Of a stretch of DNA of 64,000 bases, positions 1,431 through 64,000 are shown one piece after another. The first letter of the stretch is position 1; each line of letters starts with the position of its first letter. The position numbers and the translations under genes were made by a program. This DNA comes from a virus (lineage: Duplodnaviria; Heunggongvirae; Uroviricota; Caudoviricetes): IMG/VR virus record IMGVR_UViG_3300012359_000001, positions 38,417 to 102,416 of that record. One strand, written 5' to 3'. The notes under the pieces are model-generated. The model was given only the letters and a program-made list of their open reading frames with translations, was not told the DNA's origin and did not search any database.

Positions 1431-2126
1431 ATGACTAGAGTATACCACCGTACACTTCCCGATGCGACCTCGAAAATTTGTTCTTTGTGCGGTATTGAAA
1501 GACCTCTTGATGATTTCTCGAAAGACCGGAGACAAGGCCGAGTGTCGAGATGTAAAATATGCAAAGCTGCCCCACGTGTTCAAAGAACATTCTCCTTCGT
1601 AAAAACATGTTATAGATGCAAAGTGGAAAAGTCCCTTGATGAGTTTGCGATCAGCAAAGAAAAGAAGGATGGACGTTGTTCCCTCTGTAAAGCATGTAAG
1701 AATGCAGACTTCCAGCGTACTAAAGAGCAGACGAAAGAAAAACGGGATGCTTATGCTGTTTACTACCATCAAACTCATTACGAGGAAAACCGTGAGAAAG
1801 AAAATGCTAGATGTCGTAAATGGCATAGAAATAATCCAGAATGGGCAATAGAGAATGTTGCCAAACGGCGCGCACGTCTCTTGAATGCGGCTATCATTGA
1901 AAAGATTGACTACAACTTTATCAATGAGCGAGATAATTTCACTTGCCACATTTGCGGTAAGAGTATCGATGAGAAACAAGGTATCCACTATGATCATGTT
2001 ATTCCACTTGTACGTGGGGGATGTCATACCCATAACAATATCAAAATGTCTCACGCAACCTGTAACCTGAGAAAAGGGAAAAAGTTGATGGAAGAGTTGA
2101 CTGAATATAAAAGACGCGGGGTGTAA
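1431..2126 (+). CDS. HNH homing-type endonuclease
   Basis: The C-terminus HYDHVIPLVRGGCHTHNNIKMSHATCNLRKG is an HNH motif. Multiple CxxC pairs occur upstream. It is on the opposite strand to the flanking tail genes. Confidence 0.8.
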   Translation: MTRVYHRTLPDATSKICSLCGIERPLDDFSKDRRQGRVSRCKICKAAPRVQRTFSFVKTCYRCKVEKSLDEFAISKEKKDGRCSLCKACKNADFQRTKEQTKEKRDAYAVYYHQTHYEENREKENARCRKWHRNNPEWAIENVAKRRARLLNAAIIEKIDYNFINERDNFTCHICGKSIDEKQGIHYDHVIPLVRGGCHTHNNIKMSHATCNLRKGKKLMEELTEYKRRGV

Positions 2127-6591: not shown

Positions 6592-6606
6592 AACACGTCA
6601 TTCTCC

Positions 6607-7047
6607 TTATAGGTTTTCTTGCGAAAATAGATGGTAACGCGCTACGAGATGCTGAGAAATACCATCGGGGTCTTGTACAAAGTTGGCAGTATCAAACCAC
6701 GTCCCTACATGCACTTGGGCAGACAACACCAACGATTGACGATGTAACAGGCGTGTCAAGCTTCCCAGGATACTTTGCAGTTGCTTAAAGCCCCTGGTTT
6801 GTGACCATCCATGCAAGGTGTAGATACCATCGTAGCCACGCGCATTCACGGTTCCCATACAGTCCATCGGGCTTTCATAGGTTTCTCCTATGGTCACGAA
6901 AGGGAAGATTTGTGGCTGTGGAACAGACGACGCATCAAAGACGCCTTTGAGGATTGCCATCAGTGTTGCATCACCCGTCAGGCGTGTGTAAAATGCCGTT
7001 TGCACGGTTCCTGTCGCTGTCCCTATCGCGGTCATATCGCGTGACAC
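6607..7047 (-). CDS. Tail terminator / tail completion protein (DUF3168-like)
   Basis: 146 aa. Sits between the gp10-like and tail tube genes. Sequence is of the general tail terminator type. Confidence 0.4.
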   Translation of the reverse strand: MSRDMTAIGTATGTVQTAFYTRLTGDATLMAILKGVFDASSVPQPQIFPFVTIGETYESPMDCMGTVNARGYDGIYTLHGWSQTRGFKQLQSILGSLTRLLHRQSLVLSAQVHVGTWFDTANFVQDPDGISQHLVARYHLFSQENL

Positions 7048-8278: not shown

Positions 8279-8929
8279 TCAAATCCAATCCACCCGATGA
8301 CTCAGCAACTTTGCTTCAATCTCTTGCATCTGTGCAGGATTGCCCCCGCCTTCACGAAATTGATAGTAGTAGGAAACTAACTCGTACACGGCTTGAAGTG
8401 CATCAGGTGCGGCTTGATAGGAATACACAGGATCGTAGCCTGCATAATATTGAAACATCCAGAAATTGCTCGTAACCGGATCTTGCACGAACAGGCGTGC
8501 AGGTTCTTGCGTATCATCAATCCAGGTCGGTCCTGTAAACACAGTCCAATCCTCAAAGGCAGTTACTTTGGTTTGAATGACTATGGGTCGTGATGCCTGC
8601 ACAGGTGGCATACTCAGGTCATAGTAGTATTGAGCGACACCGAACGGGTTCGCCCCTAACTGTTCCTGGAACTGGTACCAATTTACTCCCCCTACAATTG
8701 GTCCTGACAAGGTACCGCCTGTTGGACGTTCAATAGTGACGACTTGCTGTATCTGTTGTGAGGCAAAGGCACGATGGGTAAGCGTCTCAGCACGCGCACG
8801 CGCACGTACAATCATCCTGGCAATCACTGCATCATCGTCAGGAAAATCGACACGTAGGTATGCTTTGGCATCAGTCAAGCTAATAGGCTCTATTGATGGT
8901 TGAGTGATCACCTTGCATGCGCTACTCAT
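8279..8929 (-). CDS. Head-tail connector (gp6-like)
   Basis: N-terminus EPISLTDAKAYLRVDFPDDDAVIARMIVRARARAETLTHRAF matches the gp6-like connector family pattern. Confidence 0.6.
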   Translation of the reverse strand: MSSACKVITQPSIEPISLTDAKAYLRVDFPDDDAVIARMIVRARARAETLTHRAFASQQIQQVVTIERPTGGTLSGPIVGGVNWYQFQEQLGANPFGVAQYYYDLSMPPVQASRPIVIQTKVTAFEDWTVFTGPTWIDDTQEPARLFVQDPVTSNFWMFQYYAGYDPVYSYQAAPDALQAVYELVSYYYQFREGGGNPAQMQEIEAKLLSHRVDWI

Positions 8930-9155
8930 CTACCGCCTTGATCTCGACATTGAACTTCTGTCCAAGTTGAGCGTCATGAAACACTTTTGCAGCAGCAGGG
9001 TTGACAATGAGCAATTCAAGTGTTCCATTCGGGGTTGCAGGTCCGAATGGTTCGCCCTGCACTGGTACAAACTTGAAATTTGTTGCTTCTCCTGATGGGT
9101 GATACATGATACGCTTTGCCTCTACAAGATGGAATTGCGCGAGAACACTACTCAT
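8922..9155 (-). CDS. Hypothetical protein
   Basis: 77-aa ORF in the head module. Confidence 0.3.
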   Translation of the reverse strand: MSSVLAQFHLVEAKRIMYHPSGEATNFKFVPVQGEPFGPATPNGTLELLIVNPAAAKVFHDAQLGQKFNVEIKAVDE

Positions 9156-17584: not shown

Positions 17585-18895
17585 CTCCGTTCAGGAAGCC
17601 CTACGGCTTCAGCCAAGGGAGGAATGAACGGCTTCCGCAGAAGCATTATTGCGTATTGACGATATCCCTCTAAGTGTGCTATAATACTGACATGAAACAA
17701 ACCATGCTCTTGAAACTGGCACCATCGCCAGAACAACAGAACGCCCTGCTTGAAGTCATGCATGCCTTTAATGATGCGTGTAATATGATCGCGCAAGTGG
17801 CATACGATGAACAACTTGCCAACAAGTTCAAGTTGCAAAAGTTGGTCTATGCCACCGTACGCAAGGACTTCAAGTTGTCGTCTCAGTTGGCAATACGCGC
17901 AATCAGCAAAACGGTGGAGTCCTACAAGCATGATAAGAGCATCAAAGTTTCTTTCCGCCGTGAGGGTGCAATCACCTATGACGAGCGGGTAATGTCCTTC
18001 AAAGGGTTGAATGAAGTCTCCCTGCTCACTCTGCAAGGGCGTGTGTTGGTTCCGTTTCGTATCGGCGGCTATCAGGAGTCTCGACTTGACCAAATCAAGG
18101 GGCAGGCCGATCTTCTCTTGAAGGGAAATACCTTCTATCTTGCAGTCACCCTGGACGTGCCAACTCCTGAACCCTATCAACCGTCTGAGACGTTGGGTGT
18201 TGATCTCGGTATTATCAACCTTGCTACCGCGTCGGATGGTGAGACGTTTAGCGGACAGGCGATTGAGCATACCCGCATACGCATGCTCTCGTTGCGAACA
18301 CGTTTGCAGAAGGTTGGCACGAAGTCCGCAAAGCGCCACCTCAAGAAACTTTCCGGTCATGAGAAACGGTTTCATCGTAACACGAATCATGTGATCTCCA
18401 AACATCTGGTACATAAAGCGAAAGTCAATGGACAAGAACTCGCGATTGAAGACTTAAGGCACATTCGTAAGAATGCAACGGTTCGGAAGTCTCAGCGCAA
18501 TCGACACGCCTCCTGGTCCTTCTGGCAACTGCGCTTCTTCCTCTCCTACAAGGCGGCGCTTGCGGGTGTTCCCTTGCACGTGGTAGACCCGCGTAACACG
18601 TCTCGAACGTGCCATGTGTGCGGACACTGCGAGAAAGCGAACCGCAAGAGTCAAGCCCTGTTCCTCTGTAAACAGTGCGGCATGTCGATGAACGCTGACA
18701 TCAACGCCGCAATAAACATATCTAGGGCTGAAGTCATGCAGCCTATGGCATCGGGACGCGCCCAGGTGCAAGCCGTTGGGTTTTAACTCAGGCGGTCATG
18801 ACTCTTGCGCTCCCTCTCCATACCGTTCAGGAAATTTACCCTTTGCCGTCTCTCTCTGGGGATAATCTGAAATATTCCCTATCAGTGGAGCAGAG
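17585..18895 (+). mobile_element. IS200/IS605-family element carrying only tnpB (IS1341-like). Boundaries approximate.
   Basis: Subterminal hairpins at 17600-17650 (GAAGCC..GGCTTC; GCTTCcgcaGAAGC). tnpB at 17692-18786. The motif CCGTTCAGGAA is repeated near both ends (about 17590 and 18832). Confidence 0.55.
17692..18786 (+). CDS. tnpB: TnpB (IS605 OrfB) RuvC-like RNA-guided nuclease family
   Basis: RuvC-I LGVDLGI, RuvC-II AIEDL, zinc finger CHVCGHC...CKQCG, and RuvC-III NADINAAINI. TATAAT sits 12 nt upstream of the ATG. Confidence 0.85.
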   Translation: MKQTMLLKLAPSPEQQNALLEVMHAFNDACNMIAQVAYDEQLANKFKLQKLVYATVRKDFKLSSQLAIRAISKTVESYKHDKSIKVSFRREGAITYDERVMSFKGLNEVSLLTLQGRVLVPFRIGGYQESRLDQIKGQADLLLKGNTFYLAVTLDVPTPEPYQPSETLGVDLGIINLATASDGETFSGQAIEHTRIRMLSLRTRLQKVGTKSAKRHLKKLSGHEKRFHRNTNHVISKHLVHKAKVNGQELAIEDLRHIRKNATVRKSQRNRHASWSFWQLRFFLSYKAALAGVPLHVVDPRNTSRTCHVCGHCEKANRKSQALFLCKQCGMSMNADINAAINISRAEVMQPMASGRAQVQAVGF

Positions 18896-25532: not shown

Positions 25533-25721
25533 ATGAAAACAGGGCGAACCAAAGTCTATGCCGACGCACAGCCATTTGATATAAAAAATCTTTCTGCCGA
25601 TCTGAAGAAGAAGTTTGAGGAAGGGCAAGTTCGATACAAAGAAAGGACAGGGCAAGAAATGACGAGACGGGGATATCTTGAGCATTTGCTCAGAACACAC
25701 CCCGAATTGCAGAAGGACTAA
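25533..25721 (+). CDS. Hypothetical small protein
   Basis: 62 aa with a strong GAGAGGAGAGG RBS, downstream of the plus-strand promoter. Confidence 0.4.
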   Translation: MKTGRTKVYADAQPFDIKNLSADLKKKFEEGQVRYKERTGQEMTRRGYLEHLLRTHPELQKD

Positions 25722-26419
25722 ATTCGTATACGTCCGTGGTCATGCCAAAGGTGCTGTCGCTTCCAAGCGTGATTACGGACTGGTTCACGATACATCCTCC
25801 CTTTGAAAGACACGACGCCCTCACGCGCCTGCTCATCAAAGTAGTAGTCCTCGCTATCCCACGGTGTACGCCCCTCACGCTCAGGTGCCAGCAGTAACTC
25901 ACCTTCCACCAACTTCTGCATACAGGATGACTGTCCGACGCAAAAATGTCCGATTCGACGCTTTCCGTAAACCGCTAATGACTTGAACGCTAGCCATAAC
26001 CCTGCGGCAGTATCCCCAATGTAAAAGGGTAGATAAGGACCATATTCCAGCCAACTTCGGCATTGTGCCAGCATATCAAAGGACACTTCCCCTACTTCAC
26101 TGCGTAGTGACACCCACACACATTGCATTTCATCGGCTAATTGCGCAGGGTCAACGTCCCACTTTTCTAGCGTCTGTGGGCGAAAGTTATCAAGCACGAT
26201 ATCAGGATAATCCAGGGGATGCAGATCAAGAAGCGAGAGGATATTCTTCTCTTCCATCTGCTTACCCGCATTAATCCATTCCCACAACTCATCACCCTGG
26301 CGCAAGCCAAGTATCGGATCTTTGCCAGTATGCCACTTTGTAACTTCGCATCCCTGCTCGGCCAAGATCATGCCAGCGTAGGCAACGCTTACATAATTGC
26401 CCAATTCAAGAACGCGCAT
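25718..26419 (-). CDS. CoA-transferase family III (CaiB/BaiF)-like protein, short form
   Basis: N-terminus MRVLELGNYVSVAYAGMILAEQGCEVTKWHTGKD aligns with the CaiB/BaiF N-terminal fold (kVLD..G..aGP....LA..GA.ViKiE). It is only 233 aa, against about 400 aa for canonical enzymes. Confidence 0.45.
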   Translation of the reverse strand: MRVLELGNYVSVAYAGMILAEQGCEVTKWHTGKDPILGLRQGDELWEWINAGKQMEEKNILSLLDLHPLDYPDIVLDNFRPQTLEKWDVDPAQLADEMQCVWVSLRSEVGEVSFDMLAQCRSWLEYGPYLPFYIGDTAAGLWLAFKSLAVYGKRRIGHFCVGQSSCMQKLVEGELLLAPEREGRTPWDSEDYYFDEQAREGVVSFKGRMYREPVRNHAWKRQHLWHDHGRIRI

Positions 26420-26915: not shown

Positions 26916-28193
26916 CTACTTGATGGGTGGAGCGTACTCAAAAGTAGCAGTTCCCAGGCGGCGGTACTGTGCTTGCCGCCCTCGCAAAACCGGATCGGCA
27001 GTTTTTGAGCTAGAGAGTGATGCCACATTCGTGTAAGAACCATGATGACTCTTCTGCATATTCAGAGCATCGCGCTTCTTGTCTAAATGGTCGTCTAGGC
27101 AGACTAGACGACCAGAGTTACTGTGATACAACATTTTCTGGTTCTTCTTCCACCTCGACGACTCTGACGCAGGCGATGGACCCGATGCATCCACGCCACA
27201 TTGCTTCCAGCGAGGGCTACGTGAGTAGTATGCAATCATAGCAGGATGGGCAACCGTATTATGGTAGCGATAGCCACGCTCATACAAATACTGGCCGAGC
27301 CAATCATCAAAACGTCCACCTAAACCTAAACCTTGATAATCAGGACGAACGACTAAGCGGTGCCCTTGCTTGATATTTCTGGTTTTCGGATGAGGAAGGT
27401 GCAAATAGGAAGAGAACGCTACGCACTCGCCTCCAATGAAACCAGCAAAGCATTGGGCCGCAGTATGGAGTACTCCACTTAGATAGTGATACTTGCTAAA
27501 CAGTCTCCATGCGGTTTTATCACACTGATAGATGCGGAACTCCAATTCTGGATGTCGTTGAAGTAACCTCCAATTGAAGGTATTAGTATGCGGCTGGTAC
27601 ACCCAATCAGGTTGTAACCAATCAAGCACATCATAATGGCACGTTACCGCGACCAATTGTTTTCCCGATTTGCGCACACTTTTCTGGATGCTGTGCGAAG
27701 CAACCTGCGCTACCTGCCGATCGACGACGCTGGTAAACTCATCAAGGACAATGAGATTCTCTGGTTCTAGTAACGCACGAGCCGCAGTGACACGGAACTG
27801 TTCACCCATGCTGAGTACAGCGTAGGGACGCATCCAGTTAGGAGGAGAACCAAAGCCGACACCGCACAACGATCCGGTGATATCCTTGATCGAAAGTCCT
27901 TTAGGCATTGCATCAACCACACTTTTATCAACGGGCCAGTCATCATAACCGATACGAACACAATCACCATAGAGAGCACGCGCAACCGTTGTTTTGCCAC
28001 TACCAGAGGGTCCAACAATAAGCCCGATGGACCAATCCTTTTGGTTGAGCGGCAAGTCAATATCCCAAGACTCAATAGATCGTTCTGAAATCGGGATATC
28101 GAATAAACTCTCTAATTGTTGTATACGTGCCGTTCGTTGCACGGCACATTCTTTCACGATATGCGCTTGCATTACAGTACCAGTGCCCGACAT
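26916..28193 (-). CDS. ABC-type ATPase nucleotide-binding domain fused to a GNAT-like acyltransferase domain
   Basis: Walker A GPSGSGKTT, signature-like LSMGEQ, Walker B LIVLDEFTSVVD, H-loop VTCHYD. C-terminal HRLVVRPDYQGLGLGGRF resembles GNAT motif A. Confidence 0.55.
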   Translation of the reverse strand: MSGTGTVMQAHIVKECAVQRTARIQQLESLFDIPISERSIESWDIDLPLNQKDWSIGLIVGPSGSGKTTVARALYGDCVRIGYDDWPVDKSVVDAMPKGLSIKDITGSLCGVGFGSPPNWMRPYAVLSMGEQFRVTAARALLEPENLIVLDEFTSVVDRQVAQVASHSIQKSVRKSGKQLVAVTCHYDVLDWLQPDWVYQPHTNTFNWRLLQRHPELEFRIYQCDKTAWRLFSKYHYLSGVLHTAAQCFAGFIGGECVAFSSYLHLPHPKTRNIKQGHRLVVRPDYQGLGLGGRFDDWLGQYLYERGYRYHNTVAHPAMIAYYSRSPRWKQCGVDASGPSPASESSRWKKNQKMLYHSNSGRLVCLDDHLDKKRDALNMQKSHHGSYTNVASLSSSKTADPVLRGRQAQYRRLGTATFEYAPPIK

Positions 28194-28783
28194 GTAATCC
28201 CCTCTCCCTGAAAGCGATCTAAGAGCACCAATTGCTCTTGCTCATTCTGGCAATCAATGATAATACCCCATCGCTCGGCAACGTCTGTTTGTTCAGCATT
28301 CCCCTCCTCTGGTAACTTGTCAGCATTTCTCCCTATCACCTCATCACCCAAACCCTCCAACATTTGCCGCAATGTCTCATCATCGCTACCAAGTGTCACC
28401 AGATCGTACCCTGCGTTTTGTTGTTCGGTAAGCAATTCTGCTAAAAGCGCATCATCGTCTACAGCATCCGCACTCAGGAGGTTATCGGCTACAATATAGG
28501 CATTGCATTCTAAATCAGAAAATGTTGGAGGCAGGATCGTTGCGTGAAGTTGGCTCATTTTGAGTTGTTGCGCCGCTTCGACCACACCATGACCTGCAAG
28601 GATCGTGTATGACCCATTCCCCTCATCCCTGCACACAATATCGCGCATCTGCCCGAAGCGTTCAAGACTCATCTTGATTTTATGTACTTGTTCGGGTGGA
28701 TGCGAACGGAAGTTCCGCTCAGATGGGTAGAGGGCAGCAACGGACACCTGATAATGCTCTTTGACAATCTCTTGCTCGATCAT
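28172..28783 (-). CDS. ParB-like nuclease domain protein
   Basis: LYPSERNFRSHPPEQVHKIKMSLERFGQMRDIVCR...YTILAGHGVVEAAQQL is a ParB/Srx fold pattern. Confidence 0.55.
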   Translation of the reverse strand: MIEQEIVKEHYQVSVAALYPSERNFRSHPPEQVHKIKMSLERFGQMRDIVCRDEGNGSYTILAGHGVVEAAQQLKMSQLHATILPPTFSDLECNAYIVADNLLSADAVDDDALLAELLTEQQNAGYDLVTLGSDDETLRQMLEGLGDEVIGRNADKLPEEGNAEQTDVAERWGIIIDCQNEQEQLVLLDRFQGEGITCRALVL

Positions 28784-28786
28784 ACC

Positions 28787-29005
28787 CTACTCCTGCTTTG
28801 CTGGTTCCTCTGTCGCTGGTTGCTGTTCTTCATCTCCCACAACACGCTTCACTTGTCTGCGTAATGTCTCAAAATGCGGCATGATCTGTTTTGCCTCTTG
28901 ATGCGCGTACTCTCCCATACCTGCAAACATATTGTGTGCCTCACGATAGAGGATATCTAATCGTGCATGCAATCGTTTCAATTGTTGTTTTAACTCTTCA
29001 TTCAT
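28787..29005 (-). CDS. Hypothetical protein
   Basis: 72-aa ORF, predicted coiled. Confidence 0.3.
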   Translation of the reverse strand: MNEELKQQLKRLHARLDILYREAHNMFAGMGEYAHQEAKQIMPHFETLRRQVKRVVGDEEQQPATEEPAKQE

Positions 29006-29358
29006 ACTGTATCCTGTCGTGTTGCCCGTAACTCTACAAGTAACGCTTTGATATCACATATTTCTTTCTCTGCTAGTCGGTTCACCATTGCATCATGCTC
29101 CACCGTACACCTGTCTCGCTCAGCCTGCTTATTCTCTGACATCAGGACAAAAATACTTAGGAATATCGCCTCAAGACTTACGGATAAGGTCAAGAACGAG
29201 AACGGGTACGCATCGAACCGCCAGAGTGTGAATGTGTTCAACACAATCCAGAAGAGGAACACAAAGAAATTAATTGCTAGAAATGCAATCGATCCACAAA
29301 AGACAGCAATCCATTCAGCAATCCGCTCACTCTTACTCACCTCCGGTGCCTTAATCAT
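29002..29358 (-). CDS. DUF1003-like membrane protein
   Basis: Two TM segments and ...FDAYPFSFLTLSVSLEAIFLSIFVLMSENKQAERDR match the DUF1003 pattern. Confidence 0.45.
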   Translation of the reverse strand: MIKAPEVSKSERIAEWIAVFCGSIAFLAINFFVFLFWIVLNTFTLWRFDAYPFSFLTLSVSLEAIFLSIFVLMSENKQAERDRCTVEHDAMVNRLAEKEICDIKALLVELRATRQDTV

Positions 29359-29462
29359 CCCTTATACTTTCAGCAATGCAGGCGGGACAGTCCAGATACA
29401 AGAAGCATTACCCACAACACTATCCCGCTACATCTAGCATACAGTCAGGCACAAAGCGTTGC

Positions 29463-29762
29463 TCATTCCTCTTGCCTCACCGTTGCTTCAAAGTGCAAAC
29501 CAAACACCGTTACACCGCCTGGGCAAAATGCCAATATCGCTACAGCCTCACAGAACCGGCCCATCATTTTACCGGTTTGCCCCTTTACGTAATAGAGCAG
29601 GCTATCCCCTTTTTCTCCCAGGACGAAACCGAATTTTTGCGCTTCCTCAAGGTGATATTCAGTCGGACCTCCCATCTGCTGCAAGTCAAATATCGCTATT
29701 GGCACGAGTGCAGAGAGAGTACAGCGTATGAGGTGTAGTTTTGTGGCGTTGTTATCGATCAT
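29463..29762 (-). CDS. Hypothetical protein
   Basis: ORF trimmed to the internal Met MIDNN. The upstream part overlaps a structured intergenic region. Confidence 0.3.
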   Translation of the reverse strand: MIDNNATKLHLIRCTLSALVPIAIFDLQQMGGPTEYHLEEAQKFGFVLGEKGDSLLYYVKGQTGKMMGRFCEAVAILAFCPGGVTVFGLHFEATVRQEE

Positions 29763-29927
29763 ACTTTCATGATACTGAACAGGAAAAGCAAGAAAGCAGT
29801 ATTGCAAAAATGGACAAAAAAAAGAGAGAGAGCAGGCATCTGGTACCCACACTCTCTTTTTTTTCTGGCAGATAGTAGCGAAAGGAATAATCATGTACAA
29901 CCAAAGTCAGTATAGCCGATACAACAA

Positions 29928-29967
29928 AAGAGAGAGGTGTTGCCAGATCGCACCTCTCTCTTTTTCT
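29928..29967. terminator. Bidirectional rho-independent-like terminator hairpin
   Basis: AAGAGAGAGGTG, loop ttgccagatcg, CACCTCTCTCTT, then TTTTTCT. An A-rich run precedes the stem. Confidence 0.5.
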
Positions 29968-30144
29968 CAAGGACCAATTGTGAATAACATGACGTAAAGC
30001 AATTCCCTTATTCAGCATACCAAACACCACAAAAGCGACCTGGAAAGATTGTTCTCCCAGGTCGTGATATCATTGGCTATTTTGCTGCAACTATTATCGT
30101 TCTACGGGTACGTTTACGAGGTCGTGTGTTTTACCGCCAACACT

Positions 30145-30615
30145 TCATGGGCAAGCTGTAGGGAAATACCTGCTTTTTTTTGCAAGTCGCTCAGGCGTAA
30201 TCTCTGGGTAAAGTTTCATGATGACAGAGACTCTACTTCCTAATTCACCTTTTATTAATGGTGAGCTATTTTTAGCCTGCCCTGTTTTTGATTTGCTTTC
30301 AAAAATGGACTGAAAATCTTTGTAAGTGAAAGACTTTGCAACATCCAGATTGAATAGACGCACCCCCAAGGAGAGGTAGTAGCGTATCCAATATTGCTCT
30401 CTTCCTTTAGCTTTCTCTATTGTTTCCACTTGCTCAAGAGTACGCATGATAAGCATGAAGCTTTCACTCTTTAGTTCCTGTATCCACTCATTCTTGTCGA
30501 TATTATTCCCGCTACACTGCACATGCTGAGAGAAGCGTTTATACACATCATCAGTAATGCCAACATAGCGTACAACATCGTTGCGAGGATCGATCAGGAC
30601 GTAAACAGCAATCAT
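30145..30615 (-). CDS. GIY-YIG homing endonuclease
   Basis: VYVLIDPRNDVVRYVGITDDVYKRFSQH is the GIY-YIG motif. Confidence 0.75.
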   Translation of the reverse strand: MIAVYVLIDPRNDVVRYVGITDDVYKRFSQHVQCSGNNIDKNEWIQELKSESFMLIMRTLEQVETIEKAKGREQYWIRYYLSLGVRLFNLDVAKSFTYKDFQSIFESKSKTGQAKNSSPLIKGELGSRVSVIMKLYPEITPERLAKKSRYFPTACP

Positions 30616-30627
30616 AGCATTGTCTCC

Positions 30628-30924
30628 CTACTCAAAACCCATATCGTCTAACAGGCTACTTGCAGCATCTCTTGCAGCATCAGTCACAACAACCCCTGAA
30701 ACTTTTGCCTCATGCTTTTTCTTCAGTTTACGATCAACTTTCTTCTTTGAGGCAGGCTTTCTTTCCTCGTCTGCCTCATCAGTGTAGGCAAGAATGGAAG
30801 CGGATTTAATGAGTACCCGCAACGGAATGGCTGACTTCTCAGCATGTTCTACCATCCGTTGCGCTGCCTGATTATCCTTTGGCAGTGCAATCTCAACATA
30901 CCAGTACTTCTCATGGTCTTTCAT
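30628..30924 (-). CDS. Putative ParR-like centromere-binding adaptor
   Basis: 98-aa basic/acidic protein immediately downstream of the parM-like gene, the canonical parMR order. Confidence 0.35.
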   Translation of the reverse strand: MKDHEKYWYVEIALPKDNQAAQRMVEHAEKSAIPLRVLIKSASILAYTDEADEERKPASKKKVDRKLKKKHEAKVSGVVVTDAARDAASSLLDDMGFE

Positions 30925-30927
30925 GTT

Positions 30928-31998
30928 TTACGCCCTCCGCAATGCGCGGCGCTGTCCGATCTGGTCTGCAAGAACGGCATACCCGCGAGCATTCGCTTTC
31001 TCAGGATCGGCTATCTGCACAGCGTTCTTGATGATTTTTTGTAGCGATGAATGGAAGTAGTACGCGCCGCCGCCGCAATGCAGCACTGATTTAAAGCTAG
31101 AAGCTACTTTGCCGCTCTGGTTACTCCACACACTAGAGATTTTTGCATTCTTCTCATCACCAGTTTCCTTGATAGCGGCTTTGACCCACTGCTGCAAATC
31201 TATCCCTGAAACTTGTATTCCATCAGCATACAGTTCTGGATAGGCACCAATATTGATACTTGCACGAAGGACAGCCTGCATTTCTGGCTCTGAGAGTTCA
31301 CGCCCGTATTTCGCCTCAAACTTTGTGCTCAACCGATAGAGGGCATTATTGACGCCGATCTCGAAACTATCGCACTGCTCAGTATGTGCCTTGTGTCCAT
31401 CAAAGCGAAGCATGTTGGTCGTGAGCGATCCGCTATCAACTATTCCTATCGTACTGGTCTTATCAAAACCGTGATAGATAGCAGCTCCCGCGCCCTCCAT
31501 GAACACCTTGACCGTCTCGACGCTGATCGCCATATCACGCCCATTGAACTGATAGCGATACACGCCGGTTAACTCTTCAACGATCTTGCTAGACTGTTCC
31601 TGGTAAGCACGCAAAGGAACGCCCATAACCAGATTGATGGAGAACTCCTGTATCCCAGGCCATATCTGCGCGGCAGCCAGCGAAGCAAAGCACATGATAG
31701 AAACCTGAGTACGTTTGTTGTGATAGCGGTGCTTGTCTTTAAAATCTGAAGTTGGGTTAAGTCCCTGCTCAGCAAGATCAGACAAAAAGTACACTGATCC
31801 GTCATATTCCACCATCAACTCGTTAGGATTGATGGTTTCACCGAGTCCACTGCCAGATTTCAGGGATTGATACTTCTTTAAGTTCCCTTCCGAGATGAGG
31901 CTTGACGCGTCGAACTCCAATAATCTGCCAGTATCCGTCATAACAGCGATATTTGTACGCTGATTGCCCCTGTCGAAGCCTAAATTCAATGTTTTCAT
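30928..31998 (-). CDS. parM: Actin-like ATPase, ParM/StbA family
   Basis: Phosphate-1 LGFDRGNQRTNIAV, phosphate-2 IVDSGSLTTN, adenosine HCGGGAY. Confidence 0.7.
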   Translation of the reverse strand: MKTLNLGFDRGNQRTNIAVMTDTGRLLEFDASSLISEGNLKKYQSLKSGSGLGETINPNELMVEYDGSVYFLSDLAEQGLNPTSDFKDKHRYHNKRTQVSIMCFASLAAAQIWPGIQEFSINLVMGVPLRAYQEQSSKIVEELTGVYRYQFNGRDMAISVETVKVFMEGAGAAIYHGFDKTSTIGIVDSGSLTTNMLRFDGHKAHTEQCDSFEIGVNNALYRLSTKFEAKYGRELSEPEMQAVLRASINIGAYPELYADGIQVSGIDLQQWVKAAIKETGDEKNAKISSVWSNQSGKVASSFKSVLHCGGGAYYFHSSLQKIIKNAVQIADPEKANARGYAVLADQIGQRRALRRA

Positions 31999-36382: not shown

Positions 36383-37153
36383 TTACTTCCAGTAGTCTAT
36401 TTTTTCAGACATCCTGTACTCAAAACGAGTTGCATCTGCAATAGTTCGATGCAAGGCAACCACTGAATTATCAACAGAATAGTTGATACGACGCACTTCA
36501 AAGACAGGCTGAAAACGAGCCAGTTTTAATGTCTCGCACTCAGCAAATGTTGGTGGACGGGACTGGATGGTAAGATCGGTATGGTCAACTGATACACCGT
36601 ACTTCTGTTTGATAGCAAGCATCGTATCGAAGCCAGGGTCTTGACGCATCTGCTCTACAAAAACACTGGCAAGCGAAACCGGATACCAGATATGACCAAT
36701 CCTCAACGGTTGCTCATCTGTTCCCTGTAACCGTGATCGATGCACAACGTGAACACCTTCAGGGATAGCAATGTCTCCGTCTCTTTTCATAAAAAGAATA
36801 GCCACATCAGGAGGCATCGATGCAATCACAGGATCAACCAGGTTTTCTTCCACCGTCTTCAACCCTAATTTTTGTAAATGGGTTATAAAATTTGGCGTCA
36901 GACCAGGGAGAATGATCCGCAATTGTGCAACCTTGTAACGGTTACCAGCAACAGGAACAACAAGTCCTTCAGATCGTAGGATGAGCAACGCATTTGTAAC
37001 AGTCACGCGTATAGTTTTCCACTCTTTCGCAATAGAGGCGATAGAGGGAAGTATCCCTTCATTTCCGTAGTCTCCATTTTTAATCCGACTACGAAAATCA
37101 TCAGCTATCTGCTCAACTAGCGTCCCCCCTTCAGTATCACTCACTTCTTTCAA
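36383..37153 (-). CDS. GntR/HutC-family transcriptional regulator
   Basis: N-terminal GntR HTH (SIASIAKEWKTIRVTVTNALLILRSEGLV) plus a UTRA-like C-terminal domain. Confidence 0.7.
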   Translation of the reverse strand: MKEVSDTEGGTLVEQIADDFRSRIKNGDYGNEGILPSIASIAKEWKTIRVTVTNALLILRSEGLVVPVAGNRYKVAQLRIILPGLTPNFITHLQKLGLKTVEENLVDPVIASMPPDVAILFMKRDGDIAIPEGVHVVHRSRLQGTDEQPLRIGHIWYPVSLASVFVEQMRQDPGFDTMLAIKQKYGVSVDHTDLTIQSRPPTFAECETLKLARFQPVFEVRRINYSVDNSVVALHRTIADATRFEYRMSEKIDYWK

Positions 37154-44152: not shown

Positions 44153-44541
44153 GCGACCCCCTTCGTGCCATACATCCCGCCGTACTCCTGCTCCAACTTT
44201 GCCGCAACCATCTTGGCATGCTCAGGGGTTGCACGCTCGCAATAGGCAAGCCAGTTATGATAGCCTTGCCTGATGAAGAACCCGCCTGCATCCTCCTCTT
44301 CCATACGCTTTGTTTCCCCATTCCACCGTTTTTGTGTGAATATCATTTCCAACTCAGGGCATCCATAATAGCGTGCCTGTTCTAGCAACCGTGCAGCATG
44401 TGCATGTTCCTTGCAAAAGCCGCTCTCACCTGCTGTATTGGTACAGGCTGTGATGCGCCGTGGAAAGACGGTAGAAGGCTGCGTGATCTCGAACTGGCAG
44501 CACGACTCTTGCTTGATTGCTACTCCAAAGAGGTATTTCAT
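44149..44541 (-). CDS. Hypothetical Cys-rich protein
   Basis: 130-aa ORF. Confidence 0.3.
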   Translation of the reverse strand: MKYLFGVAIKQESCCQFEITQPSTVFPRRITACTNTAGESGFCKEHAHAARLLEQARYYGCPELEMIFTQKRWNGETKRMEEEDAGGFFIRQGYHNWLAYCERATPEHAKMVAAKLEQEYGGMYGTKGVA

Positions 44542-45290
44542 GCCTCTTGCTCACTTTCTGGCATATCCCACGGTGGGGTATCATCTTCATTGGTTACAGG
44601 TGCCTGCTTGCGCAACTCTTCGCTGACATGCTGTAACTGCATTCGTTTAAGTCGAGAGGCAGCCTGCACTACAGACCTTGCTTGCGTCACTTCGTCACGA
44701 GAGAGGATATACATCGCCTCCTCACGGCATCTTAAAACGGCAGGGTGTAACTCAGGAGGCACATCAAGAGACTGATTAGGAACAGGTTTCTGAGCAGTAA
44801 AGGCAAGGAGTAATTGGTACAGCATTCGTGTATCTTCTCTCGTAAAATCATCGGGCGCAATAATGCCGCATACGTGAGAAGTAAGGCTTGTTGCCTCAAG
44901 GAGAAGCCCAACAAGTAGATCCTCCCAGGTCTGCACGGTCACTTTCTTGTTTTTGCGTACCACCGTTGGATCAGGGTATAAAGCGTGCCCTGTCTTATCC
45001 ATGAGATCAGATTGCTCCACTTTGGAATGGAAGTGTTCATGACACGATTCGCAAAGCGTGGTTAAGTCATTCAAGTCTTCGCGCCCACGTCGTTGGTATG
45101 TGCGATGATGCACCTCTAACTTTTCATTGCTATAACAAAGTCGGCAACGATGATCATCACGGATAAGCGTTTGTTTCCGTTTCTCTGCCCATTCAGGCGT
45201 TCGTAAGTACTCGGCATACGGCATACGTGCTAACTGCTCTTTGCGCTGCTCATTAACAGTCAAACGAGAGAACCATTCAGGATCATTCAT
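44538..45290 (-). CDS. HNH endonuclease domain protein
   Basis: DDHRCRLCYSNEKLEVHHRTYQRRGREDLNDLTTLCESCHEHFH is an HNH motif. Start probably at MNDPEWF (45290). Confidence 0.7.
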   Translation of the reverse strand: MNDPEWFSRLTVNEQRKEQLARMPYAEYLRTPEWAEKRKQTLIRDDHRCRLCYSNEKLEVHHRTYQRRGREDLNDLTTLCESCHEHFHSKVEQSDLMDKTGHALYPDPTVVRKNKKVTVQTWEDLLVGLLLEATSLTSHVCGIIAPDDFTREDTRMLYQLLLAFTAQKPVPNQSLDVPPELHPAVLRCREEAMYILSRDEVTQARSVVQAASRLKRMQLQHVSEELRKQAPVTNEDDTPPWDMPESEQEA

Positions 45291-45637
45291 TATGCAACCT
45301 CCTGTATTTCTAATGCCGCCATTGCTAACGCCGTGATACATTCATCACTTCCCATCAATGTAATCTGCACTGCGTACCAGGGACCAGCCTCAATCGAGTA
45401 GTACTTGACTTCATCAAGAGTGATATCGGTCAAAGCAGGGAAGCCACGTGAAGAGAGAATGTCAAGGAAATCTCCACGTATCCGATGTTCCGTACACCAG
45501 CACATCCCGGCGCAATCTCGATAGACCACCTCTGGTACATCCATCTCAAATTGCTGCAAGGTGTCTTTATCACACCGCATACACTCGCCTGGACGCTCAA
45601 TCTCTTGTAGTTTTCTCCGTATTTCAGTGATGTTCAT
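45290..45637 (-). CDS. Hypothetical protein
   Basis: 115-aa ORF. Confidence 0.3.
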   Translation of the reverse strand: MNITEIRRKLQEIERPGECMRCDKDTLQQFEMDVPEVVYRDCAGMCWCTEHRIRGDFLDILSSRGFPALTDITLDEVKYYSIEAGPWYAVQITLMGSDECITALAMAALEIQEVA

Positions 45638-56055: not shown

Positions 56056-56772
56056 ATGCCAGTAGGAAAATACGTTGCATTAGCAACTGAATTAGAGAAA
56101 GATATCCACTCTGGAAAATATGGTCAAGAAGGTGGCTTGCCAAGTGTTATTGAATTGGCCGAGAAGTGGGGAGCGGCTATCAATACGGTGAAAAGTTCGC
56201 TGGCACTCTTAGAGGGTAAGGGTATCATCGAAAAGCGAGGAAGCAACTACTACGTCAACAAGATTGATATTGTCATGACGCGGCATGTGCCTGCCGCAAC
56301 TGCACGTCTGCCGCGTGGTTCCTTTTGTAGAAATATCAGTGACGTGACCGTAGATGCCTTCCCCTCCTACCTTGTAGTAAAGATAGATGCTTCCTCTCCT
56401 GGGCAGGCACCACACCGTACACAGGTTTCAGGAGAGTTCGTTGACGGAAAAGAGCGACCAATCATGGTCGCTTCCCGTTACTACCTTCTTGCGCTTACCC
56501 CTGAGCAGGTCAACCGACTAGAGGATGCAACTTATGATCCAATGTGGGATGAGTCTGATGTGCCAGTTAGTCTAGTAGCACATAATATATCGTGCGCACG
56601 ACTAGCCACAGAAGAGGAGAGAACCTTGCTTCATCTCCCTAATCCATCTGCTGTTACCAATCTCTTTGAGGCAATCTATGATGCGCAAGGCAATGTACTC
56701 ATGGCTCAAGAGGTCGTAGTGTCTCCTGCATACGACCTCCATCATAGATACCCATTCATGAACCGCCCGTAA
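56056..56772 (+). CDS. GntR/HutC-family transcriptional regulator (second copy)
   Basis: N-terminal GntR HTH (LPSVIELAEKWGAAINTVKSSLALLEGKGII) plus a UTRA-like C-terminal domain. Confidence 0.7.
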   Translation: MPVGKYVALATELEKDIHSGKYGQEGGLPSVIELAEKWGAAINTVKSSLALLEGKGIIEKRGSNYYVNKIDIVMTRHVPAATARLPRGSFCRNISDVTVDAFPSYLVVKIDASSPGQAPHRTQVSGEFVDGKERPIMVASRYYLLALTPEQVNRLEDATYDPMWDESDVPVSLVAHNISCARLATEEERTLLHLPNPSAVTNLFEAIYDAQGNVLMAQEVVVSPAYDLHHRYPFMNRP

Positions 56773-57714: not shown

Positions 57715-58800
57715 ATGAAGACAAGTAAGAAGAAGTGGAACGAACCATCAACACCGGTCATGCCTCAGCAGCAAAATGCGTGGCATCCGGTAACAGTTCG
57801 AGAACTAAGAGAGCAACGGGAGCGTTTTAATATCGATCCTCCTTTTCAACGGAAACAAGCATGGAACCGTCGGCAATGTCAGCAACTCTATGAGACGATG
57901 TTCCAGGGACGACCGATAGGGACACTTGAAGGGTATCGTGAGAATACAGCGATGGAGGGCGGAACCGTCTTTGGTATTATTGATGGACACCAGCGCATTA
58001 CGGCTATTCTGCGCTTCGTTGATAACAATATTAAAACCTGGACGTATCCTCAAAAGTTGCAACTCTTCCCAGGTTCCGAAGCGCCGAAACAGCCTGGACG
58101 ATTTTTCAGAGATCTCGATGTGAATGCAAGGAACTACTTTCTTGACTATCGGGTGGATATCAACCTTATCCCAAAGATGACTGACCACGAATTAGTTGAA
58201 CGGTTCCTTGAGATACAGTGTCATGTGCCGCTCTCGCCTGCTGAACGATTGTATGCCTATCCTAGTAAAGCGAAGGAACTAGCAAAGCGGATCGGCTCAC
58301 ACTTACTTTGGGATGGGTTCTATGCAGGAGAACGGCATAGAGGACAGGTTTTTCAAAGTTGCCTCTGTCTTCTGGCAATTGAACTGCAAGGCGGTATTGC
58401 CGATCTACGAGGTCAAAGCGTGTACATCAATAGCCTTGCGTGCGGGAAGCGTGACGATGAGATTACAACCACAGTAGAGCAGAGAGTGAGAGGGCATTTG
58501 GATGAGGTGTGTTTACTCTTTTCAGGGATGCAGTTCACTGACAGGATAGCCAGCGTGGTCATGTATCAAGCTGTGATGAAGTTGAAAGAGTGCGGATATC
58601 AAATAAAAACAACCGATCGCGGGAAACTGACAACCTGGATACTGAACATCATCAATGAGTCAAAGCAGGTAATGGGGATACCTGTCTATAACCAGCCAAT
58701 CCAACGCCTCCTTTACGCTTCATCTCAAAAAGTATTCTGGGAACATAACCTGAAAGTGGTGTTGCGGCTAATGGATATACCTGAATCGCAAGAGGGATAA
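57715..58800 (+). CDS. DUF262 (ParB-like, GmrSD N-terminal type) domain protein lacking an HNH/DUF1524 domain
   Basis: FQRKQAWNRRQCQQLYETMFQGRPIGTL...VFGIIDGHQRITAIL matches the DUF262 pattern (DGQQR with His). No His-Me nuclease motif in the C-terminal 200 aa. Confidence 0.55.
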   Translation: MKTSKKKWNEPSTPVMPQQQNAWHPVTVRELREQRERFNIDPPFQRKQAWNRRQCQQLYETMFQGRPIGTLEGYRENTAMEGGTVFGIIDGHQRITAILRFVDNNIKTWTYPQKLQLFPGSEAPKQPGRFFRDLDVNARNYFLDYRVDINLIPKMTDHELVERFLEIQCHVPLSPAERLYAYPSKAKELAKRIGSHLLWDGFYAGERHRGQVFQSCLCLLAIELQGGIADLRGQSVYINSLACGKRDDEITTTVEQRVRGHLDEVCLLFSGMQFTDRIASVVMYQAVMKLKECGYQIKTTDRGKLTTWILNIINESKQVMGIPVYNQPIQRLLYASSQKVFWEHNLKVVLRLMDIPESQEG

Positions 58801-61815: not shown

Positions 61816-62011
61816 AACAATAGAGCATTCACACGAGATGCAAGATCTACACAATGAGGCAATCAATACCGTCTATCGGTTTATTGCGATAGACACCAGT
61901 CATATCATCGGACCTGATGCGCTTTTCCATTTGGGTTTGTATTTTGCTGGTGTTCAAGGGTTGATTAGGAAAAGTAGTGAAGGGCGATATGGGAACAAAA
62001 GAAACCTATAG
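61808..62011 (+). CDS. Hypothetical protein
   Basis: 67-aa ORF. Confidence 0.3.
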   Translation: MDETIEHSHEMQDLHNEAINTVYRFIAIDTSHIIGPDALFHLGLYFAGVQGLIRKSSEGRYGNKRNL

Positions 62012-62792
62012 CATTGTGGAGGCTGCCATGTATCTGGGCCTCACTGAAGGGAACACGAAACCAATCTACGCAGCAATCTATGCCAACAAGATACTCGCGG
62101 TAAAAGAGAACGTAGGCGGGAAAATAGTCTGGGTGATCGATGGAGAAAGCTTAGCTGAGTACAAATCACAGTTAGGAAACGGGCCACGCAAGAAGCCTGC
62201 TGAAGTCGCTGTACAGGAGAAGCAACCGGTACCAGTAGCGCATCCTGTCCGAAGAGAGGCACCCGATGATAGTACCTTGCTCCCTCGTGCTATCACCTCA
62301 CTCTTTCAATTCTTGTCTGACCACCATCTATCCAACGATGTGCGATCGATACAGAAAGTAGTAGAACACTTGCATATCTGGGAAGTACAAACGGCAAACA
62401 CGCCTGTACAAATTGTCATTGCAGGTGAACGCGTAACCGTCCTGGCAGATGAGTACCAACGAGAGTTAGAGGCACAGGTGCAGGAGTTGAGAAGCCACCT
62501 GAGAGAAGCAGAGACGCGCCTGTCCTACTATACACGCAAGGCACAGGAGCGAGTGTTGACTGAGTATCACTATCCCCTCACGGTCCTTGTGGAGTCACAC
62601 GTTGATGGTTTTCTGGTATGGTCCAAACAGTTTCCCTTTGCCGCAAGGGGGCAAACAGAGGGGGAAGCGTTGGCCGCATTCAGAAGGATGATCTGGGGCT
62701 ACGCATCCTGGCTACGCACGCATGAGAGAGAGTTAGCGAATGGGATGCGAGAGCAATTTGGAATGCTCAAGAATTTGCTCGTTGAAGATTAA
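61989..62792 (+). CDS. HTH protein with a central coiled region and a C-terminal HicB-like (UPF0150-type) domain
   Basis: SIVEAAMYLGLTEGNTKPIYAAI is HTH-like. The C-terminus YHYPLTVLVESHVDGFLVWSKQFPFAARGQTEGEALAAFRRMIWGYASWL resembles HicB-family antitoxin folds. Confidence 0.4.
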   Translation: MGTKETYSIVEAAMYLGLTEGNTKPIYAAIYANKILAVKENVGGKIVWVIDGESLAEYKSQLGNGPRKKPAEVAVQEKQPVPVAHPVRREAPDDSTLLPRAITSLFQFLSDHHLSNDVRSIQKVVEHLHIWEVQTANTPVQIVIAGERVTVLADEYQRELEAQVQELRSHLREAETRLSYYTRKAQERVLTEYHYPLTVLVESHVDGFLVWSKQFPFAARGQTEGEALAAFRRMIWGYASWLRTHERELANGMREQFGMLKNLLVED

Positions 62793-62793
62793 C

Positions 62794-62865
62794 CTACCCT
62801 TGATGCCATACATAATCCACTGTGTGTATGTCCGTACTTCCTTCAACAATTGGCATCAAGGGTAG
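62794..62865. repeat. 15-bp perfect inverted repeat with a 42-nt loop between convergent genes
   Basis: CTACCCTTGATGCCA at 62794-62808 and TGGCATCAAGGGTAG at 62851-62865. Confidence 0.8.
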
Positions 62866-62871
62866 TTACTG

Positions 62872-63054
62872 CTACCAGCGGTGGCGTCTGTGATGGCGGT
62901 GGCGTCTTCTATGACGCCCGTACTCGTCGTAATCCCAATACCATCCATCGTCGTCGTCCCAATCGTCGTCTCCCCAATCACGACGATACCCGCCTGTAAC
63001 TTGAGCCAGTTCTGTATCGCTTAACTCAAGCATTTCATATGTTTCTTCCATCAT
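62872..63054 (-). CDS. Double-glycine-leader precursor peptide (bacteriocin/RiPP-like) with an unusual bipartite core
   Basis: MMEETYEMLELSDTELAQVTGG | YRRDWGDDDWDDDDGWYWDYDEYGRHRRRHRHHRRHRW. The leader fits the L(-12), E(-8), L(-7), V(-4), GG consensus. AAGGAGAAA RBS. Confidence 0.55.
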   Translation of the reverse strand: MMEETYEMLELSDTELAQVTGGYRRDWGDDDWDDDDGWYWDYDEYGRHRRRHRHHRRHRW

Positions 63055-63462
63055 TTTCTCCTTTTCAAAGTGGGGGATTCTCCTCTTCTCTTCTATTAGG
63101 AATGGAAAGGAAGAATCCCGTCTCAGGTATTCGCTGTCTCTTTTCGAGACTCCTTATAGCATACACAGCCATATGCCAAATGTCCATTGAGCATCTGTCA
63201 ATTTATGAATAAGACGCCCACAACGACGGTACGCATCCTGTAATCCTGGGGTGTTCTTCTGTATGATCTGCAATGAAGGAGGCTGTATTGTGGCTGTCAG
63301 ACGGTTATCCTTGTGCTGTAAGCCAACAGAGGCTTACACGTCTCTTTTATGAGACATCAAACTTCTTTGTCTTTCTCTTGCCAGTGAAGCACGGTCAACC
63401 TCGAACGTTCCGTGTTGAGGCAAGTGTTTGTGTCTGTGCATTCAAGCGTAAGGTAGCGACAA

Positions 63463-63524
63463 ACAACAAGAAACCACCTATCAGTAAATCTGAGCGACAA
63501 CAGAGATAGGTGGTTCTTTGTTGT
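63463..63524. repeat. 20-bp near-perfect inverted repeat hairpin
   Basis: ACAACAAGAAACCACCTATC at 63463-63482 and GATAGGTGGTTCTTTGTTGT at 63505-63524 (one mismatch, 22-nt spacer). Confidence 0.8.
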
Positions 63525-63676
63525 AATTAATCGTCGTAATGGCTCAAAGGCACCTCGCAATCTAGGACGTATACATGCTACAAATAGTATAACATGTTTG
63601 GGCTTTTCGTCTTGTGCGTTCTTTTCAACCATTTCCCCTTTTGCTATACTGATAGAAAAGTGTGTGTGAGGTGGCA

Positions 63677-63955
63677 ATGCGCAACCATCAATTCGAGATC
63701 CCTGAACAGGCTGCAAGTCTCCATATGAGAGAAGTTATTCTTTGGACGAATGGCAACTGTATGGTTTTCGACGATAAGGGGCAACAGATGTGTGAGTTCC
63801 AGGGGATATTTGAGAATGCTGCTCCTCGTATCAATGCGGTCTTTTCTGGCAACTGGCAGTACGGGGATTGGAGACGTGGGATCATACAAAGTGTTCCATT
63901 TGAGCAGGTAATGTTCACAGAGAATGGAGTATATCGGTGGACATCGGAACCGTGA
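63677..63955 (+). CDS. Hypothetical protein
   Basis: Start at MRNHQFEIPE after a GAGGTGG RBS. 92 aa. Confidence 0.4.
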   Translation: MRNHQFEIPEQAASLHMREVILWTNGNCMVFDDKGQQMCEFQGIFENAAPRINAVFSGNWQYGDWRRGIIQSVPFEQVMFTENGVYRWTSEP

Positions 63956-64000
63956 TAGTGTTTGCCGCATCTGTGGGTTTATTTATCTGGCTGGTAGTCA

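Follow-up and report, generated by a model that had tools for sequence, protein, structure and literature searches.

The question raised by the locus described here is whether a tailed phage carries a gene for a peptide destined to leave the bacterial cell by the double-glycine (GG) secretion route. The analysed stretch, hereafter the window, comprises 64,000 nucleotides (positions 38,417 to 102,416 of the IMG/VR virus record IMGVR_UViG_3300012359_000001, assigned to Caudoviricetes), and the gene in question is a small open reading frame (ORF) at 62872-63054 on the minus strand. It is read from the first ATG at 63054 over 60 codons to a TAG stop at 62872-62874, and encodes a leader, MMEETYEMLELSDTELAQVTGG, followed by a core of 38 amino acids (aa), YRRDWGDDDWDDDDGWYWDYDEYGRHRRRHRHHRRHRW. 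Judged by a curated family model and by structural recognition rules, the product begins with a genuine double-glycine leader. On sequence grounds, the whole product is classified as a GG-leader peptide with a new type of core, which the phage carries as an orphan precursor.

The double-glycine leader and its gene

The leader occupies 62989-63054 on the minus strand and is 22 aa long, or 21 aa when counted from a second ATG. The recognition elements of C39 peptidases, defined by work on ComA and by the co-crystal structure of LahT150, are Leu-12-(X)3-Glu-8-Leu-7 together with a hydrophobic residue at -4 (PMC6363468). In the phage peptide, the corresponding stretch MEETYEMLELSDTELAQVTGG agrees at every recognition position: Leu-12 is followed by Ser, Asp and Thr, then by Glu-8 and Leu-7, Ala and Gln, Val-4, Thr and the two glycines at -2/-1, which stand directly before the core (VTGG/Y, residues 19-23). 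By this comparison, the leader matches the experimentally defined ComA/LahT recognition residues exactly and appears to possess every testable feature of a double-glycine leader. With the NCBIfam model TIGR01847 (bacteriocin_sig), the leader reached 17.5 bits (E 0.0044), above the curated cutoff of 15.7, and a Pfam search of the peptide gave no match. Moreover, AlphaFold2 run on the single sequence predicted a helix at residues 13-19, which correspond to positions -10 to -4. The 22-aa GG-type leader proposed in the initial annotation is therefore borne out by the model score and by the recognition positions.

In Markov-shuffled six-frame translations, a chance expectation of 0.043 per 64 kb was obtained for the strict GG-leader pattern, and of 0.003 when an upstream start codon and a downstream core are also required; the pattern was found once in the window, at the peptide gene. 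No other GG-leader ORF was detected in the phage sequence scanned or in ~450 kb of further loci. Of the six frames, the annotated one ranks first in codon usage (0.139 bits per codon, compared with 0.160 +/- 0.045 for the long genes of the phage). When the gene is divided, the leader scores 0.36 bits per codon and the repetitive core is near zero (0.008). ORFs on the plus strand over the same DNA were rejected on their codon score and their missing ribosome-binding site.

The ribosome-binding site of the peptide gene had been described as strong, and the data agree. A Shine-Dalgarno sequence AAGGAG lies at 63058-63063 on the minus strand; when 35 gene starts of the phage were inspected, more than half were found to use such a sequence, and this one ranks among the strongest. 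Its spacing is 3 nt to the first ATG and 6 nt to the second (63051), from which a form of 59 codons would be read. Because of this better spacing, the 59-aa form is the likelier product; it is also the form called in the NCBI, ENA and Logan records, and the form of 60 aa is called by the Joint Genome Institute (JGI). A stem-loop at 63074-63119 on the minus strand (z -2.0) lies just upstream of the Shine-Dalgarno sequence, in the presumed 5' untranslated region, and the Shine-Dalgarno sequence is unpaired in the centroid fold. The promoter-pattern scan gave a candidate sigma-70-like promoter, TGGACA-17-TATGCT, at 63158-63186 on the same strand, which is weak (9/12). The Rfam scan of 62000-64000 gave no match.

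The peptide gene is the only gene on its strand within an 884-nt gap between two plus-strand transcription units, and its orientation is opposite to that of both neighbours. The gap is bordered by a 271-aa ORF ending at 62792, with which the peptide gene is convergent as originally stated, and by the next called gene, starting near 63677. No co-directional ORF with a ribosome-binding site is present between 62793 and 63720, so there is no adjacent co-transcribed immunity gene. The hairpin reported just downstream was also recovered: an inverted repeat with a perfect 15-bp stem and a 42-nt loop (62794-62808/62851-62865) lies between the two convergent stop codons and begins 6 nt past the stop of the peptide gene, with a folding z-score of -3.8. 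Because of its 42-nt loop and missing U-tract it does not qualify as a canonical intrinsic terminator; a role as a bidirectional end of transcripts or as a stabiliser is possible. We read the peptide gene as a real gene and, putatively, as a self-contained, moron-like accessory gene.

In the same gap, a possible uncalled ORF of 73 codons was noted at 63288-63509 on the plus strand, divergent from the peptide gene. Its start codon, TTG, follows a perfect AAGGAGG at a distance of 5 nt, its codon score is 0.105 bits per codon, its stop falls within an inverted repeat with 20-nt arms (63463-63524), and it has no Pfam match.

A core of two opposed charge blocks

The 38-aa core consists of seven residue types only (D10, R10, W5, H5, Y4, G3, E1). 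It holds nine aromatic residues and is devoid of Cys, Ser, Thr and Lys. Its composition is as first described, with a half of Asp, Trp and Tyr preceding a half of Arg and His. The acidic/aromatic half, YRRDWGDDDWDDDDGWYWDYDEYG (24 residues), is encoded at 62917-62988 on the minus strand and carries a charge of ~-9 at pH 7. The basic half, RHRRRHRHHRRHRW (the last 14 residues), is encoded at 62875-62916 on the minus strand and carries ~+8 at pH 7 and +12.6 at pH 5. The whole core has a net charge of -0.8 at pH 7 and +4.8 at pH 5, an isoelectric point of 6.55 and a monoisotopic mass of 5297.34 Da. The segregation of charge noted in the initial annotation proved to be pronounced: the parameter kappa is ~0.65, compared with a shuffle mean of 0.16, and this value was reached by none of 5000 shuffles.

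At the DNA level, the acidic half is made of three copies of a 15/16-nt repeat encoding W-x-D-D-D, and the basic half contains an 18-nt tandem duplication whose two units encode HRRRHR and HHRRHR. Since the core DNA is made of such 15-18-nt tandem duplications, a recent expansion of the core is suggested. In the AlphaFold2 model, again based on the single sequence, residues 35-42 of the acidic/aromatic half are paired with residues 48-55 of the Arg/His half (predicted local distance difference test, pLDDT, ~70-80). The model hints weakly at a beta-hairpin in which the two halves of the core would pair intramolecularly.

Phage, probable host and the proposed route of export

The gene was annotated as phage-encoded, which the content of the window confirms: it encodes an HK97-type capsid protein, a portal protein, an S78 prohead protease, a large terminase, a tape measure protein, DnaB and DnaN. 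The public record of the phage is ENA ERZ14695916 DNA_vOTU_6973 (102,432 bp), and the phage was also assembled in Logan run SRR10360606 and by JGI. The window spans the ends of the DNA_vOTU_6973 record with a 139-bp overlap; the assembly is therefore circular and the genome complete at ~102.3 kb. The phage is of the siphovirus type, with a genome of ~102 kb. Gene content was scanned in ~112 ORFs over ~83 kb of it (the window and flanks of 9 and 8.6 kb).

The only informative indication of the host came from a TnpB (IS605 OrfB) gene at 17674-18786 on the plus strand, which has OrfB_IS605 and Cas12f1-like TNB domains and is inserted between the portal and terminase genes. Its homologues number thousands, and they were ranked in a scan of one genome per species covering 185,579 bacterial and archaeal species. 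The ~30 closest relatives (62-78% identity) all come from Ktedonobacteria or from metagenome-assembled genomes (MAGs) labelled Chloroflexota/Chloroflexia, with identities of 78% for Ktedonobacteraceae MAGs, 77% for Ktedonobacter robiniae, 70% for Thermosporothrix hazakensis and 65-66% for Thermogemmatispora. Past the top ~30, identity falls to at most 56% (Armatimonadota, Methanothrix and others). The capsid, DnaB, DnaN and GntR sequences, compared with phage and plasmid records by tblastn, gave identities of 24-40% over many phyla and were uninformative on the host, and the phage has no tRNA genes. Judged by this phage-borne TnpB, the host is probably a member of Ktedonobacteria.

Ktedonobacteria make lanthipeptides and are rich in clusters for peptides that are ribosomally synthesised and modified after translation (RiPPs) (PMC6497799). 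Ktedonobacter racemifer has two C39-containing LanT homologues, Krac_11031, accompanied by a LanM, and Krac_11909, which has no lanthipeptide enzyme in its vicinity (PMC3951391), so an exporter of the cognate type is present in the inferred host class. By analogy, export of the phage peptide through host machinery is plausible. Moreover, the LahT150 protease was reported to be highly tolerant of the core sequence (PMC6363468).

The explanation that we prefer, to which we give somewhat less than an even chance, is that the gene is moron-like and that a peptidase-containing ATP-binding cassette transporter (PCAT) of the host cleaves its product behind Gly-Gly and carries the core out of the cell as an unmodified, self-masked Arg/His/Trp polycation. 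The N-terminal 21-22 residues of the prepeptide would serve as a canonical double-glycine leader. In an infected or lysogenic cell, the leader helix, with Leu-12, Leu-7 and Val-4, would dock into the C39 domain of the host PCAT, which would cut after Gly-Gly and export the 38-residue core. The mature peptide would remain unmodified, its poly-Asp/Trp/Tyr half pairing back on the Arg/His/Trp half to form a self-masked hairpin that is near neutral at pH 7. It would be unmasked at pH 5, where it becomes cationic, or once the acidic half has been clipped off, and the exposed Arg/His/Trp segment would then affect other cells, its likeliest role being that of an antimicrobial or competition factor.

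A number of results weigh against this reading and are gathered here. The interpretation as an exported GG peptide is no more than plausible and is weakened by the lack of any conservation. A word-indexed search of 5.8 billion clusters returned the peptide itself only. An exhaustive phmmer search against 1.84 billion representatives returned, besides the peptide, two long repeat proteins, which were rejected as relatives because their matches sum low-complexity stretches. No relatives were found in Pfam, PHROGs or PDB, or in back-translated scans of viral, genome and metagenome contigs. By these searches the peptide is an ORFan. The initial annotation had suggested looking for homologous GG-leader peptides, of which the databases searched hold none, and had named a lack of conservation as an argument against itself; the ORF is indeed not conserved, though its lineage is one without sequenced relatives. 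The copies of the gene in ENA and Logan are 100% identical to the window. For this reason no ratio of nonsynonymous to synonymous substitutions (dN/dS) is computable, and with identical copies and no homologues there is no signal of selection to lend evolutionary support. Likewise, when the 271-aa neighbour and an AAA_25 helicase were used to probe synteny, neither viral nor metagenome contigs yielded a related locus, and INPHARED holds no close relative of the phage. The only related phage found (IMG/VR; L089) has a portal protein 66% identical and is a contig of 46.7 kb that does not extend to the syntenic position.

The gene-content scan is to be counted on the same side. That no C39 peptidase or ABC-transporter exporter lies in the window had been stated at the outset and holds; the search of the rest of the phage that was proposed at that time likewise gave nothing, as neither Peptidase_C39 nor ABC_membrane was found in the ~83 kb, that is in ~80% of the phage. 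The same sequence contains no radical S-adenosylmethionine (radical-SAM), cytochrome P450, LanC/LanM, YcaO or ATP-grasp maturase and no immunity gene, accessory protein or histidine kinase. Its sole ABC-type match, at 26916-28193, is a soluble ATPase-GNAT fusion. A single mobile gene underlies the host assignment, which is inference, not proof, and PCATs can reject incompatible cargo (PMC7018657). The core differs from known class II bacteriocins in lacking aliphatic hydrophobic residues and in not being cationic at neutral pH. Assignment to that class was rejected, as the core is neither cationic nor hydrophobic and neither an immunity gene nor an exporter was found in the ~83 kb. Among the local signals, the intrinsic-terminator scan did not score the 15-bp-stem hairpin, which has no U-tract, as terminator-like, and promoter-like matches in the region are no more numerous than expected from shuffling. 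The AlphaFold2 model of the peptide, with a mean pLDDT of 70.5, has a predicted template modelling score (pTM) of 0.23.

Several other genes of the phage were recorded. The immediate neighbours of the peptide gene have no known function except for helix-turn-helix, GntR, GmrSD_N and zinc-finger matches. The GmrSD_N (DUF262) protein at 57715-58800 on the plus strand, ~4 kb from the peptide gene, resembles the N-terminal domain of type IV restriction enzymes. Two GntR-family regulators, at 36383-37153 on the minus strand (UTRA, E 3.4e-12) and at 56056-56772 on the plus strand (UTRA, E 0.015, below the Pfam cutoff), hint at regulation responsive to small molecules. The membrane protein nearest to the peptide gene has 91 aa and a single transmembrane helix at its N-terminus; it is encoded by the second gene of the divergent operon (8840-9115 on the minus strand of the overlapping locus L001, equal to window position ~63937 onward on the plus strand), and nothing ties it to immunity. 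A 98-aa protein at 6593-6889 on the plus strand of the same locus, ~3.2 kb past the end of the window, has a signal-peptide-like N-terminus and a Pro/His/Cys-rich body (HHRPVHLPPVHHKPPTKKPP) and is probably a small secreted phage product.

A partition-like module at 26916-31998 on the minus strand comprises an actin-like ALP/Alp7A gene (30928-31998), a weak ParB_N match (28172-28783) and the ATPase-GNAT fusion mentioned above. No integrase was seen in the ~83 kb, and the phage might be kept as a plasmid-prophage or might actively position its DNA. Homing-endonuclease-like genes are represented by at least three HNH and at least three GIY-YIG matches, e.g., at 1431-2126 (plus strand), at 44538-45341 (minus strand) and at 2045-2899 of locus L003. 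A Dam methylase match and a truncated fragment of a coenzyme A transferase III (25718-26419) are also present.

Alternative explanations and known systems

Among the alternatives, the one that survives best is an intracellular peptide whose GG-like N-terminus is unused for export, and we regard it as unlikely. Such a peptide might bind nucleic acids through its Arg/His tail, in the manner of arginine-rich-motif peptides or protamine-like condensers, or its poly-Asp/aromatic half might act as a DNA mimic or host-protein binder, e.g., as an anti-defence or regulatory factor; a virion-internal peptide that neutralises charge is a further variant. The composition (10 Arg, 5 His and 10 Asp) and the charge blocks are consistent with this, and we take the core to resemble arginine-rich RNA-binding motifs and acidic DNA mimics. 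The gene also lies in an accessory/regulatory region, in which helix-turn-helix, GntR and GmrSD-like genes adjoin and long inverted repeats occur, and the scanned ~83 kb of the phage offer no exporter. However, the leader fits all six recognition positions as well as the curated model, which is unlikely by chance, and the basic half would have its charge cancelled by the acidic one. The gene is also at a great distance from the structural module and oriented against it.

Also unlikely, and ranked next, is a non-functional ORF that arose by chance or very recently from the duplication of short repeats and was called owing to an accidental Shine-Dalgarno sequence and ATG. An ORFan without conservation, whose core consists of tandem duplications and has a codon score near zero, is what this explanation predicts; moreover, the locus was picked from many windows, among which a rare chance match could surface. 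Against it stand the co-occurrence of a leader with a high codon score, an exact recognition motif, a strong Shine-Dalgarno sequence and hairpins flanking an isolated gene, as well as the use of GG peptides in the inferred host clade. If the ORF were unexpressed, it would be a mere curiosity of repeat-generated sequence.

A GG-exported signal rather than a toxin, serving communication between phages or between phage and host or hijacking the quorum sensing of the host, seems improbable to us. GG leaders do also serve the pheromones ComC and BlpC (PMC6363468; PMC7018657), no immunity gene was found, and the gene adjoins a large divergent regulatory gap. However, no histidine kinase, response regulator or receptor-like gene was found in the neighbourhood, and the repetitive, low-complexity core of 38 residues is unlike known pheromones. 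With no homologues, there is also no sign of a conserved signalling system. A ComC/BlpC pheromone in the strict sense was rejected, given the missing linked kinase or regulator and a score of 12.8 bits with the BlpC model NF033215, far below its cutoff of 70.

Because the core lacks Cys, Ser, Thr and Lys, lanthipeptides, azol(in)e-containing peptides, sactipeptides, glycocins and graspetide esters or amides are excluded. The common RiPP classes were rejected for want of modifiable residues and, in the ~83 kb scanned, of a maturase, with model scores below cutoff (TIGR04497, 18.6 bits against 32; TIGR03898, 14.6 against 23.5; TIGR04149, 11.3 against 25), and a graspetide in particular by its sub-threshold score and the absence of Ser, Thr and Lys from the core. 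The weakest explanation, a RiPP precursor whose core carries other modifications (Trp/Tyr/His cross-links or hydroxylation of Asp or Arg) made by enzymes of the host or of the remaining ~20.7 kb of the phage, at positions ~20987-41658 of the DNA_vOTU_6973 record, has in its favour that GG leaders are common in RiPPs, that the core has nine aromatic residues, that the match to TIGR04497 (a putative ATP-grasp RiPP target) has an E value of 0.0014 and that Ktedonobacteria are rich in RiPP clusters (PMC6497799), but this match is below its cutoff and none of the maturase genes named above was found in the ~83 kb, and we consider it very improbable.

If the preferred reading, a peptide released by a host PCAT, is true, a precursor of ~180 bp would by itself let a phage equip or exploit its host through a promiscuous host exporter, a minimal form of phage weaponisation that cluster-based mining (antiSMASH, BAGEL) would miss. 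The Asp/Trp and Arg/His block polyampholyte would represent a new peptide chemotype, and its built-in charge masking and pH switch would be of interest to the design of antimicrobial or cell-penetrating peptides. It would also give a first entry point into phage-host biology among the Ktedonobacteria, a lineage of soil bacteria with, to our knowledge, almost no characterised viruses.

A bolder form of this idea, which we treat as a long shot, is that the stand-alone precursor parasitises the GG export of the host with a naturally activatable peptide, or else that it is a leader-bearing decoy. In the former case, with its poly-Asp/Trp strand zipped onto the Arg/His/Trp strand, the peptide would stay inactive inside its producer, and acidic soil pH or an extracellular protease would unmask a cell-penetrating polycation by which neighbouring uninfected cells would be killed or reprogrammed. 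In the latter, the peptide would jam the PCAT or a lanthipeptide pathway of the host during infection. In either case a virus would be using the GG secretion route in a new way, and the gene would be the first functional accessory one to be described from a phage of Ktedonobacteria.

The comparison with known systems begins with the precursors of class II bacteriocins and the LahA/ProcA-type substrates of PCATs, also called ABC transporter maturation and secretion (AMS) proteins. The phage peptide shares with them a leader of 21-22 aa with Leu-12, Glu-8, Leu-7, Val-4 and Gly-Gly, a predicted helix from -10 to -4 and a TIGR01847 score above the cutoff. It differs in being phage-carried and in having no linked transporter, immunity or accessory gene, and its core is near neutral, free of aliphatic hydrophobic residues and without any relative.

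Anionic pro-segments mask certain cationic antimicrobial peptides, and synthetic activatable cell-penetrating peptides are hairpins of a polyanion, a linker and polyarginine. The phage core recalls both in its polyanionic block, short linker, Arg-rich block, near-zero net charge and predicted hairpin. Those examples are, however, eukaryotic precursors or designed molecules, and unmasking of the phage peptide is hypothetical; no bacterial or phage example of a charge-masked peptide was retrieved. The arbitrium peptide AimP depends on a Sec signal, is cut down to a hexapeptide and is encoded next to its receptor gene, aimR. Like AimP, the product studied here is a small phage-encoded peptide for which secretion is proposed, but it bears a GG-type leader, and no gene for a receptor lies close by.

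Some phages carry bacteriocins from which the lysogen profits, e.g., sublancin of SPbeta (Dragos et al., bioRxiv 10.1101/2020.10.01.322628). The likeness to SPbeta and other prophage bacteriocin clusters lies in a phage-borne ribosomal peptide meant, putatively in the present case, for export and in a possible competitive benefit. SPbeta has its own transporter (sunT), modification enzymes and an immunity gene, whereas here the precursor stands alone in the ~80% of the genome that was read. Moreover, the hosts belong to different phyla (Bacillota and, as inferred here, Chloroflexota) and the cores are unrelated. In pneumococci, the exporters ComAB and BlpAB are shared by diverse GG peptides (PMC7018657), and the phage peptide is proposed to rely in the same way on an exporter that accepts many of them; the pneumococcal substrates, in contrast, are chromosomal, conserved within the species and under known regulatory systems. 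Phage bacteriocins and orphan GG peptides are thus already known, and what is intriguing about the present peptide is the chemotype of its core and its occurrence in an exporter-less phage context.

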